Below are positions 15,001 through 18,000 of a DNA stretch of 64,000 nucleotides, piece by piece. Position numbers: made by a program. The stretch's first letter is position 1. Each line of letters starts with the position of its first letter. Source of the DNA: Bacteroidales bacterium (GTDB lineage Bacteria > Bacteroidota > Bacteroidia > Bacteroidales > JAAYUG01); contig JAAYUG010000007.1 of assembly GCA_012517825.1 (NCBI GenBank), forward strand, positions 190 to 64,189. The letters are read 5' to 3'.

Positions 15001-18000
15001 ATATAATTTTACAAAGTTATCTATTTCCACCTAACTTTAATCCATTTCCTCTCTTCTCCTCAATTTCCTGAAGCATTTCCATTACTTCGGCGAGGGTGGT
15101 TGCGTTGAGCAGTCGGATGCGTGTATCGTGAAAGTGCGACAGGTTTTTAAAGTATTGTGCAAAATGCCGACGCAGATGGATGATGCCGTCGCGTTCGCCT
15201 TTTGCCTCGACCGAAAGGGTTACATGCCTGCGGACTACGTCTACTATTTCCTTTACCGAAGGCTCAGGCAACAGCTGACCAGTATTCAAGTAAAGTTTTT
15301 AATACCCTCCATTTTTTAACCATGAGATTTGTGATATAATTTTTTATTATGATGTATATTTCTTTTTTGCCAACTTTTTTCTTTTGTTACCATCTTCAAT
15401 TTATGTTAATACTAATAGCTATCCAGACTCCAAGGACTTATAGAGGCTTGTCGGATACTTTCGACCAATACCATGATGACATAGTCGGTTGTTCTATGGT
15501 TTGGACCCATATTAATCGGACTTTTTTATAGACGGTTAAAAATACATAAATTTTTCGTTTTACATTTGTCATAGCAAGGAACGACCGAAGGTGATTGTTA
15601 AACCGATGGTTGTGGAAGTGATACGGCGCCGATGCAATGCTTCAATGGCTACTTTCGCCTTAAAGGTATTTGAACCGAGGGCAGCATGCTTCCCAAGCTC
15701 AGCGAAGCTAATGTTTTTGTCTTTGTGATTTCATAATTCATTGGTTTAAAATTAGCAAATTTAAACTTAATCAGTAGTCTTAATATAAGCTAGCATTATA
15801 AAAAATCACTTATCTTTTTGGAAAGCTTAGCCTCCTCAGTCACATATCGTTTCATTAAGTGCCTGAGAGAGGTCTATTTAAAAAAGAAGGTCCAATCAAT
15901 ATGAATGACCTTATTAAATGCAGGCAAAAATAACAAAGAATGCGAAAATGTATGCAGGATAATATAGTATGCATCAAAAGTTCATCAATTCTACGAATTG
16001 TTCCAGACCATGGTTTGCAGGGTAGAAGTAAATGTGCCTCCGTTTTTTTAAAGCTTGGAAAGAAAGCTCAAAGAAAGTATTGTCAGTAGCTTTTCCTTTG
16101 CCTTCCATCGATATTTGTATATCAAGCTCTTTGAAAGTGCTCATCCGATGATGGCAGGTGTACTGTAAACACTGGTCTGAATTGATGATCTTTGTATTTT
16201 CATGACATGAACTTATTGCTTTTAACCCACATTACGCACTAAAAACAGCGCAATGTGCCCTGCGGGCCGCTTCCACTGCGTTTCAGCGGGATTAGCCCGG
16301 ATGCTTTCGCCAAAGGCCAGCCCGCTGCACATCAGTACGCTTACACTCCTGCTATGCAATCGGGTTAAAGTTTAATATCGGGACTTAATGCTTAATTCGG
16401 GTTTAATTGATATTTTTGTATAAAATTTCGCAGGCTTGGAATTCACAGATCATCTCATCACTCTGTTTTACCGGCACGATTGCATCATCATTCCGGGTTT
16501 AGGTGGATTTAAGGCAAAGTATCTGCCTGCCGGGGTGGATAAGAAACAGGGTATTGTCAAGCCACCTGTTAAATCATTTTATTTTGATGACAGGATGGTG
16601 AAAGACAATGGCCTGATGGCCGGTTTTGTTGCATCCTCATGGAATATCCCTGAGGATGAGGCTCATGCCATGCTCATTAAATTTGCTGAAGAAACCCGGA
16701 AAATTGTTCTTGGGGGGAACCGGGCGGAGGTTCCGGGGCTTGGTTATTTCTATTTAACGGTAGATGAGCGGATTGATTTTCATTTTACCATTGAAAACAA
16801 TTTTAATCCCGAAACGGTTGGAGAGGGAGTTGCCGGGCTTCCGAAAGTTTCTGTGAAGGAGACTGTAAAAAATGAAACGATGAAAGAAGAACCTCATCCT
16901 GTGTCGCGCAAAAAATCTCCGGCGCGGTTTCTTGTTCCCTTGTTCGCCCTGCTGGCTCTGGCAGTTGTTATAATAGTGTATATTCCTTCGGTTTCAAATC
17001 AGCCTCTGGTTGGGAATGTTCTCAAGAAGCTCGGAATTTCCCCGCAGCCGGCGCCAACTGATATTCGTCCGCCGGTAGTGATAGGTTCCGGGGAAAAGGA
17101 TGAAGCAGGAAAGCCCGATACGGTTTCTCCGGTCAGGGTAATACCCGAATCAAAAAGAAGTCTTTCGGAAGGGTCAAAAGAAAGTTCAGCCGCCAGGTAT
17201 TACCTGATAGCCGGAAGTTTTAAAGATATCAAAAATGCTGAGCAACTCAGCAGCAAGCTGACGCTGGATGGGTATAAAACGGAAATTCTGTCAACGCCTG
17301 ACGGCTGGCACCGGGTGTCGGTCATGTGGTTTTCCAGTCGCGATCAGGCATTGAAAGCGTTGAACGAGATTAAATCTTCCGGTAAATTATCCTCGGTCTG
17401 GCTCTTAAGTATCTGATTTACGCCGGGCCCCGGGTATTATTTCACATCCGATCCGTTCAATACCTGTTTTTCAGGTGTAACCAGAACAAGTCTTCCGTCG
17501 GGTTCTTCTGCAAGCAGAATCATTCCCAGGGATGTAATGCCCCTTATGGTTCTTGGTTCCAGGTTAGCGAGAACAGTAACCTGCTTTCCGATGATGTCTT
17601 CCGGCCTGAACCAGGCAGCGATGCCTGAAACAATGGTTCGTTTGTCAATGCCGGTATCAACAAGGAGTTTAAGGAGTTTATCCGTTTTTGGAACGGGTTC
17701 TGCATGGAGAACTGTTCCTATACGGATGTCCATTTTTGCGAAATCATCATACGAAACGGAAGCTTTGGCAGGCTTAATTCCGGTAGCAGCAGCTTCATTA
17801 GCTTTTTTGGCTGCCGCGAGTTTATCAAGTTGTCTGGTGATGGCTTCGTCATCAATCTTTTCAAAAAGCAAGGCGGATTTTCCGATATGGTGGCCTGGTT
17901 GCAGAAGATCGCTTCGTCCCAGAAGGTCCCATTCAAAGGTCGGAACATTGAGAAACTTCCTCAATTTTTCGGTAGTAAACGGAAGAAAGGGTTCCAGCAG

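Follow-up and report, generated by a model that had tools for sequence, protein, structure and literature searches.

A family of folded, tandemly arrayed intergenic repeats in uncultured Bacteroidales, with two decayed copies at junctions of core and accessory DNA

The stretch analyzed here (the window) comprises 64,000 nt of contig JAAYUG010000007.1 from a Bacteroidales bacterium (assembly GCA_012517825.1) and contains two related non-coding elements, copy A and copy B, located near a capsule-type polysaccharide locus and beside an efflux gene cassette, respectively. We consider both elements to be old, partly decayed single copies of a non-coding, non-autonomous repeat that resembles transposable elements of the miniature inverted-repeat type (MITEs) and bacterial interspersed mosaic elements (BIMEs), and give this reading a probability of about 0.7. 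They belong to a repeat family of a clade of uncultured Bacteroidales that appears to be previously undescribed. An earlier note on this DNA, made from the sequence alone, had listed three related copies. Only A and B are true relatives, while the third (locus C) shares just the 5' module of the family and a terminal TTTAAC. The coordinates of all features are given in Table 1.

The similarity between A and B is far above the level of chance. Their local alignment scores 63, compared to 16.3 +/- 2.4 for 500 dinucleotide-preserving shuffles (z = 19.5), which rules out chance as its source. By blastn the two copies share 72.8% identity over 103 nt (16269-16369 and 47872-47973, E = 7e-10), in agreement with the roughly 70% that had been estimated by hand. 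A search of the 64 kb with the family profile (nhmmer) yields exactly two strong copies, A (16227-16368, covering the whole profile, positions 1-143 of the hidden Markov model (HMM), E = 1e-35) and B (47872-47972, HMM positions 43-144, E = 5e-27). The covariance model R1, run with filters off, gives 138.5 bits for A (E = 9e-38, model positions 1-151) and 94.7 bits for B (E = 2e-25). The left limit of A had been placed too far to the right (16240 for the element, 16285 for the copy aligned), as the unit extends to 16221 and includes a 5' hairpin (16228-16257). The hairpin near the 3' end is indeed perfect in B, where 10 bp were found, and imperfect in A. Copy A carries one mismatch in helix H1, two in helix H4 and a deletion that breaks the long-range helix P3, and copy B has a weak helix H3 and one mismatch in P3, indicating that both are decaying copies. 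It also holds that the elements overlap no convincing open reading frame (ORF): A contains short overlapping ORFs only, and its interpretation as a protein-coding remnant was rejected for this reason. In several independent samples, contigs of the window's species end within A (at 16265) or B (at 47923 and 47953), as would be expected of a repeat that shares k-mers with its other copies.

Beyond the window, where the earlier note proposed to look for further copies, the family is large. A search with nhmmer of JGI metagenome contigs and one Bacteroidales metagenome-assembled genome (MAG) detected 231 units in 99 arrays. Of these arrays, 45 are singletons and 28 are doublets, and the longest, which run off contig ends, have up to 11 units or more. 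When 185,579 species-representative genomes were scanned with an exact pattern, true relatives turned up in one MAG only, the uncultured Bacteroidales CAZJQN01, the other matches being chance occurrences in GC-rich genomes. Six contigs of CAZJQN01 contain pattern matches, several of them at contig ends, and some copies are in tandem with diverged copies. A second pattern retrieved 78 loci from the JGI metagenome contigs and had no match in viral contigs. Similar sequences are also absent from plasmid and phage records, and a phage or plasmid origin was rejected on these grounds. Rfam 15 at the gathering threshold gave no match in the window and seven array-bearing loci except one tRNA, permissive thresholds gave chance-level matches only, and ARAGORN predicted no tRNA or tmRNA in the window. 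The elements were therefore rejected as members of a known RNA family or as tRNA/tmRNA derivatives.

Units occur in two forms. The long unit has a size of 143-145 nt and is composed of TTAA(C), H1 (CACATTGCGC...GCGCAATGTG), H2 (GCCCnnnGGGC) and the core. The short unit of 107-108 nt is the core alone, with CGGCCGCTTCC as its first and AATCCGGGCTTAAC as its last bases, and H1 and H2 thus represent an optional 5' module of 36 nt. H3, P3 and H4 together with a small variable hairpin make up the 107-nt core. TTAA marks the borders of the units, whose ends are imperfectly inverted (CCCACATTGCGC ... GCGCAATCCGGG). By eye, about 14 of 17 positions agree between the left end of the long unit (TTAA-CCCACATTGCGC) and the right end in reverse complement (TTAAGCCCGGATTGCGC). 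Short units lack the left inverted end. In some units (loci L079, L092, L093, L099, L106, L109, L122, L124, L135 and L027), H1 is swapped for an unrelated hairpin (GATTCATGCAT...ATGCATGAATC) that follows TTAAC or TTCAC, and another subset has H3 arms CCGAT/ATCGG instead of CCGCT/AGCGG, forming a longer stem. These variants indicate that the family is modular.

All arrays are organized head to tail, with long and short units alternating within arrays and abutting without any spacer or cassette. The number of units differs between samples at loci with identical flanks: L100 has three, L143 nine, L121 at least nine and L133 at least 11, and the same is seen for L084 (six) versus L089 (two), L077 (five) versus L105 (two), and L145 (five) versus L107 (seven). 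Adjacent units have a mean identity of 92%, and 24% of these pairs reach at least 98%, compared to 82% and 1%, respectively, for units at different loci. Arrays therefore either grow by local duplication or are homogenized by gene conversion. ORFs of up to 299 codons pass through arrays (L121, 87-986 on the minus strand, with similar ones in L133, L143 and L136) because the GC-rich units hold few stop codons. We rejected them as genes and consider them artefacts of stop-poor repeats, which gene callers could mistake for proteins.

The fold was analyzed in an alignment of 52 distinct long units from loci chosen by patterns that fix parts of P3 and H4, so that the diversity of these helices is understated. 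The RNAalifold consensus comprises H3 (CCGCU/AGCGG), long-range P3 (GCCCGGAU/AUCCGGGC) and H4 (UGCGCAUCAG/CUGAUGCGCA), with 10 covarying pairs. In P3, a G-C pair is replaced by A-U in 10 sequences and CCCGG/CCGGG by CCAGG/CCUGG in five; in H4, C-G is replaced by U-A in seven to eight sequences. H1, H2 and the small variable hairpin were added by hand to give a six-helix structure, in which 91.5% of the cells contain standard pairs, compared to 24-38% when the partners are slid by 1-3 columns. Compensatory changes, which the earlier note had named as a check on the 3' hairpin, extend over this whole fold: both partners have changed in 18 pairs, compared to 9.5 +/- 1.8 pairs in shuffled data, and the observed value was reached in none of 500 shuffles. 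Judged from this alignment, the fold is preserved by compensatory substitutions. Several unpaired stretches are nearly invariant (CACTnCGTT, GGATGC and AGTTCGCTT...CTCCT), and an internal segment of about 20 nt, itself a diverging hairpin, varies with the helices kept. Mismatches of the G·U type (44) and of the A·C type (35) occur in similar numbers, so neither strand looks like a favoured RNA.

One site was found in both a filled and an empty state. In a sister species (L172, 7000-7225; L173, 6489-6542), a full-length copy of 149 bits is located between the stop codons of the HU-SPOR and metG genes, and the HU-SPOR protein encoded there is 87% identical to that of the window. The same site consists of a 20-nt spacer only in the window, in a strain of the same species (L166) and in another sister species (L169). 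This spacer is intact beside the insert of L172/L173, which has TTAT on both sides (ATAA on the element strand). The metG-side junction is known from one contig end, with unrelated sequence after 36 nt. These 36 nt of the metG 3' end are 100% identical to the window and the rest of the locus 87.5%; the junction could represent a rearrangement or an assembly chimera at the repeat. The four bases flanking independent copies are mostly TTAA on both sides, with ATAA on both sides in L172 and L071/L112 and two different flanks in L076, L078 and L115. These flanks are suggestive of a 4-bp duplication at (T/A)TAA. Among the metagenome loci there are no empty sites, only copy-number variants.

The family is strictly intergenic and is found in either orientation relative to the adjoining genes. 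The upstream gene has the opposite orientation in 27 cases and the same in 21, and the downstream gene in 36 and 30, respectively. By gene context, seven loci are convergent, five divergent and 25 co-directional (11 sense, 14 antisense). The orientation of the element is thus unrelated to that of its flanking genes, which speaks against an RNA that acts in cis, for example as a terminator, leader or 3' stabilizer, and the lack of strand preference is consistent with a role at the DNA level. GC skew is positive on the element strand in 45 of 71 arrays (p = 0.03, with non-independent loci and noisy local skew), and the bias is stronger for arrays of three or more units. Clustering of the 680 ORFs of the array-bearing loci gave housekeeping families only, including TonB receptors, hybrid two-component regulators and glycoside hydrolases, and no transposase or other protein family recurs beside the arrays. 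Solo H1 modules never adjoin a transposase gene.

A, B and C had been described as lying at breakpoints of GC composition. This holds descriptively, and relatives show real core/accessory boundaries at all three loci. The three also occupy the largest intergenic gaps of the window (14936-16435, 47856-48341 and 57258-57777). B starts at the stop codon of a 197-aa gene, whose orthologues (82, 71 and 68% identity) in sister species (loci L156, L157, L160, L161 and L162) are convergent to the orthologue of 57778-58347 at a distance of 29-65 nt. Because these core genes adjoin in the relatives, the DNA between them in the window represents an insertion with respect to those three related species. 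C is located near the opposite edge of this island, whose right limit is approximate, the ancestral spacer motif GTCGCCAAC being retained. From left to right, the island consists of B, a two-component system, the RND efflux genes, a PagL-like hydrolase gene, a PepSY-like gene and C, with a cassette of seven genes encoding a response regulator, histidine kinase, outer-membrane protein, membrane-fusion protein, RND pump, PagL-like acyloxyacyl hydrolase and PepSY-like protein. B and C do flank this efflux cassette, as previously claimed, but not in inverted orientation, since C is on the plus strand.

The cassette is present in all 10 contigs of the same species among the matches listed, which gives no support to a polymorphism of the island within the species. 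The 9.9-kb island and its immediate surroundings have no gene for an integrase or recombinase, and the empty spacer of the sister species has no element; a diverged copy in L160 (13 bits) was unconvincing on inspection. Other Bacteroidota (L163, L165) have this seven-gene cassette in different contexts, with homology confined to 48303-57176 and no elements beside it. B and C thus do not represent the ends of the cassette itself, and the elements were rejected as the ends of a mobile cassette. In L163, the cassette is 79-83% identical in DNA and directly follows genes for RhuM and a Piwi-domain protein (prokaryotic Argonaute).

At the left junction, the homology of the same-species strain L166 (96.9% DNA identity) runs from 16346 rightward and hence begins inside the 3' end of A, while that of the sister species L169 and L172 (88% and 87%) begins at 16373-16374, just past A, with no element there. 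To the left of A, L166 has another polysaccharide locus and a far more decayed copy of the element. The capsule-type locus of the window (2069-14935), with genes for Wzz, a MatE-like flippase, glycosyltransferases and a pyruvyl transferase, is completely different from that of L166 (1-5703), although both strains belong to the same species. The polysaccharide loci of L166, L169 and L172 encode DegT, a hexapeptide transferase, a GFO oxidoreductase, UDP-glucose dehydrogenase and epimerases. A stretch of 1.3 kb of gene debris (14936-16220) separates A from the capsule locus. It contains the remnant of a dihydrouridine synthase gene (15017-15289, minus strand), which encodes a C-terminal fragment with a weak match to Pfam Dus (E = 0.0017), and an ORF of 56 aa (15974-16144, minus strand) that resembles by eye the C-terminus of an IS3-type transposase and has no Pfam match.

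In locus C, the reverse complement of 57510-57625, which had been taken for an inverted copy, aligns to A (z = 0.3) and B (z = 1.2) at the level of shuffled sequences, and this minus-strand similarity is due to chance. The family models match the plus strand instead (57512-57617). The covariance model with filters off skips the positions of the core and gives 24.5 bits (E about 1.5e-5), and nhmmer gives E = 1e-3 for the full unit and E = 1.5e-5 for the H1-H2 module. The ‘terminal hairpin’ and the ‘GCAAT(N6)TTAAAAG end’ attributed to C correspond to H1 and TTTAAC of the plus strand, read in the reverse direction. Their likeness to the 3' end of A and B comes from the unit ends being imperfect inverted repeats (TTAA-CCCACATTGCGC ... 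GCGCAATCCGGGC-TTAA). C is therefore a chimera in which the 5' module of the family is joined to a different core.

This core belongs to a second repeat family and shares 72-87% identity (blastn) with L109, L080/L098/L118/L142, L073, L124, L131, L087 and L091. In many other loci, the second repeat is found at a distance of a few hundred bases from arrays of the first family, as an arm of a long inverted repeat. In addition, a conserved non-coding region of about 450 nt, made of further long hairpins and inverted repeats, comes after the array in L080, L098, L118, L142, L124 and L109, which represent several species. This composite region (L080, 9170-9620; L124, 2040-2720; L109) contains GTAACCAAATCCCGCATAAGAAAATCTACCAGTTGGC...GCCAACTGTAAGATTTTCTATCGCGGG and an interrupted inverted repeat of about 50 bp, and has no match in Rfam. 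The presence of the second family and the composite regions beside the arrays indicates that these genomes contain a mosaic of several hairpin repeat families.

The option of a MITE-like repeat or one akin to repetitive extragenic palindromes (REPs), which was among those listed in the earlier note, is supported by the large family, its intergenic location in either orientation, the TTAA with imperfect inverted ends and the filled/empty site. New copies would insert at sites resembling TTAA and duplicate 4 bp there, as suggested by the filled/empty pair and the two cases of ATAA flanks, and arrays would then expand and contract via unequal recombination or replication slippage. The fold may be under selection because a mobilizing enzyme or a host protein reads the folded single strand or cruciform, comparable to the ends of IS200/IS605 insertion sequences or to REPs and their REP-associated tyrosine transposases (RAYTs). 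As portable homology in dispensable spacer, the copies would end up at sites where accessory DNA is exchanged and may act as crossover points there, which would account for the location of A, B and C at core/accessory junctions.

Several observations weigh against this reading. The duplication is derived from one filled/empty pair with a junction from a single contig end, and TTAA could belong to the element itself, given the unlike flanks of L076, L078 and L115. A palindromic TTAA target alone does not account for strict head-to-tail arrays, and short units without the left inverted end would be immobile by any mechanism that needs both ends. The conserved loop sequences and the covariation equally suit an RNA, and the orientation bias relative to GC skew is weak. 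No HUH/Y1 motif pair was found by an HUH...Y scan in 835 kb of metagenome loci, and no transposase, RAYT or other candidate enzyme near the arrays (about 0.8 Mb, no whole genome). An array-associated transposase was rejected based on this empty scan and on the ORF clusters, which are housekeeping only.

Among the alternatives, the units could be genes for, or parts of, a structured non-coding RNA (a small RNA or a protein- or RNA-binding module), the arrays providing multiple doses. A multi-helix fold with many compensatory changes, highly conserved unpaired stretches and a 20-nt internal segment that varies while the helices are kept are all features expected from such an RNA. We nevertheless consider it unlikely, since no Rfam family matches, the counts of G·U and A·C mismatches favour neither strand, and the orientation is unbiased relative to flanking genes or gene ends. 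By inspection, the unit also lacks a promoter-like or terminator-like module and short units abut without spacer; the copies in the window are decaying, A having a broken P3 and mismatches in H4; and copy number is free to vary across samples. A sub-case of the MITE/BIME-like reading, to which we would give only a limited chance, is that the elements are IS200/IS605-type ends or derivatives, or complex REPs mobilized by a Bacteroidetes RAYT, that insert 3' of TTAA(C) into the lagging-strand template. Hairpins are present near both ends, and the right end TTAAC equals the TTAAC of the left flank, which would permit repeated head-to-tail insertion and fits the strictly head-to-tail arrays. The GC-skew bias on the element strand, stronger in arrays of three or more units, points the same way, but it is weak and the loci are non-independent. 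Moreover, both flanks change together in L172 and L071/L112 as in a duplication, which such transposons do not make, and no Y1/HUH gene was found in the 835 kb of loci. RAYT subclass 2.6 genes of Bacteroidetes reportedly have atypical secondary structures on their flanks, which are found again elsewhere in the genome (PMC6006769), but the subclass 2.6 REP examples of Quentin et al. (Table S1, PMC6006769) are simple hairpins of 24-35 nt, unlike the 107-nt fold.

The elements had also been proposed as a recombination or attachment scar, of which the junction placement stands at all three loci and the causal role is unsupported. In its explicit form, in which the elements are att sites of a site-specific recombinase, the efflux island would have B as its attL and C as its attR, and A would mark the edge of a capsule island. 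The three loci lie exactly on core/accessory boundaries, the homology of another strain begins inside A, and the pair of B (a core without H1) and C (H1 and H2 with a foreign core) superficially resembles hybrid sites. A site-specific attachment role is nonetheless unlikely, because there is no integrase or recombinase gene in or beside the island, no attB-like copy in the empty spacer of island-free sister species, and most members are in tandem between core, housekeeping genes, in arrays that attachment sites do not form. With the element-free cassettes of L163 and L165 and the three largest intergenic gaps, which alone could produce the association, the att interpretation becomes highly improbable. 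What the junctions allow is that the repeats may serve as portable homology or fragile sites for accessory exchange, which fits the breakpoint inside A; the repeats could also merely accumulate in dispensable spacer, with the three largest gaps accounting for the association. We tentatively suggest, as a rather doubtful extension, that the 107-nt core is functional, either as a new tandem structured RNA with partner-binding loops or as the substrate of a TTAA-specific, structure-reading mobilization enzyme in what would be a new type of host-element system similar to REP-RAYT, and in either case possibly as a preferred crossover point for swaps of capsule and efflux islands.

Compared to known systems, the family shares with the REP/BIME (REPIN) elements of Proteobacteria a high copy number, a strictly intergenic location, compensated hairpins, an occurrence as single copies or mosaic clusters, and a probable mobilization in trans by a single-copy enzyme. 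However, a REP is a palindrome of 20-40 nt while the unit here has 107-145 nt and four to six helices, the REP foot GT[AG]G is missing from the unit, and REP/BIME clusters consist of inverted doublets rather than direct head-to-tail arrays with TTAA at both ends. A RAYT was not found in the 835 kb of loci scanned by motif. Correia elements (CREE/NEMIS) of Neisseria have 26-bp inverted ends, a TA duplication and two size classes. The family resembles them in being small and non-coding with imperfectly inverted ends, an apparent short A/T-rich duplication, an intergenic location in either orientation, and a long and a short form set apart by an internal segment (here 143-145 versus 107-108 nt). 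Correia elements are not known to form long tandem arrays and have no sequence similarity to the family, whose fold is more elaborate and whose short form lacks one end.

BOX elements of Streptococcus pneumoniae and BrickBuilt of Porphyromonas gingivalis (PMC4596501) are likewise modular and intergenic with a tandem module in variable number, and BrickBuilt is also from Bacteroidales. There, the repeated module (45 nt for boxB, 23 nt for BrickBuilt) is enclosed by a fixed leader and tail, whereas here the whole 107-nt unit is repeated. No sequence relationship was found to either, BrickBuilt being compared by its published description (PMC4596501). Palindrome-associated transposable elements (PATEs), which derive from IS200/IS605, share the hairpins near both ends and a conserved short left-flank motif (here TTAA(C/T)), and their fixed insertion orientation would account for head-to-tail arrays; the family differs by its apparent 4-bp duplication, its weak strand bias and the absence of a tnpA or tnpB gene nearby.

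In integrons, attC sites carry an inverse core RYYYAAC at the 5' side and a complementary core GTTRRRY at the 3' side, with gene cassettes between them. We rejected this identity for the repeats, since both ends of the unit are same-sense TTAAC (direct, not complementary) and units abut without cassette. A CRISPR array was rejected as well, because units abut and the only variable part is the diverging hairpin of about 20 nt. Like MITEs, the repeats are small, non-coding and multi-copy (231 units of 107-145 nt that lack a convincing ORF). The approximately 0.8 Mb of loci searched, which include no whole genome, yielded no autonomous partner element that has the same ends. Since the defining features of REPs, attC sites and CRISPR arrays were not found and those of MITEs are present in part, the family works like a MITE/BIME-type repeat, and we assign it to no named family.

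Dispersed repeats of the REP, BIME and MITE types break assemblies, seed rearrangements, alter expression and mark domesticated transposases. To our knowledge, almost all well-studied families of this kind are from Proteobacteria and Firmicutes. The present family is unusual in combining a large covarying fold, TTAA bounds, long and short forms, and head-to-tail arrays of variable number, and its host clade consists of uncultured Bacteroidales known from metagenome assemblies only. It accounts for contig ends of these organisms at such sites, array copy number offers a variable-number marker for strain typing, and the elements flag sites where capsule and efflux gene sets are exchanged. The fold, the arrays and the position at junctions are out of the ordinary, and a new mechanism is only proposed. 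If a mobilizing enzyme or an RNA role were found, the family would provide a new model for the persistence of folded repeats in genomes.

Table 1. Positions of the repeat units, their parts and the associated junctions in the window.
Feature	Position	Strand	Remarks
Copy A	16221-16370	+	full-length long-form unit
A: TTTAAC	16221-16226	+	
A: H1 CACATTACGC / GCGCAATGTG	16228-16237 and 16248-16257	+	one mismatch
A: H2 GCCC / GGGC	16257-16267	+	
A: H3 CCGCT / AGCGG	16267-16271 and 16285-16289	+	
A: P3 GCCCGGAT	16295-16302	+	partner ATC-GGGT damaged, 16359-16365
A: H4 TGCACATCAG / CTGCTATGCA	16326-16335 and 16349-16358	+	two mismatches
A: terminal TTAA	16365-16368	+	
Homology breakpoints at A	16346-16374		blastn of window 10000-22000 against L166, L169 and L172
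Copy B	about 47862-47973	+	5'-truncated, short-form-like; directly after the stop codon of the 197-aa gene (47855)
B: H2-like hairpin AGCC-TCA-GGCT	47865-47875	+	
B: H3		+	weak
B: P3 GCCCGGAT / ATCCTGGC	47898-47905 and 47961-47968	+	one C·T mismatch
B: H4 TGCGCATTAG / CTAATGCGCA	47929-47938 and 47951-47960	+	10 bp, perfect
B: TTAA	47969-47972	+	
Insertion relative to sister species	47856 to about 57735		9.9 kb, 32-41% GC; right edge approximate
Locus C	57512-57617	+	TTTAAC, H1 and H2, foreign core, terminal TTTAAC at 57612-57617
C: 5' module	57512-57559	+	TTTAAC ATACATTGCGAAT..ATTCGCATTTTG CCCAGAGGGCC
Second-family member (core of C)	about 57555-57690	+	CCTTTGCTGTAATTCC...GGCATTCACA...CCCCTGTTTTAAC TTGGCC...

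The fourth-largest intergenic gap of the window, which adjoins the capsule locus at its far end, contains a further site (1853-1967, plus strand) that reaches 9.3 bits with the covariance model (E = 0.3). This site has a 12-bp hairpin (TGTTTTGTGCGA...GCGCACAAAACA) and a CCCGGA...TCCGG pair, and may be either a very diverged relative of the family or a chance match.

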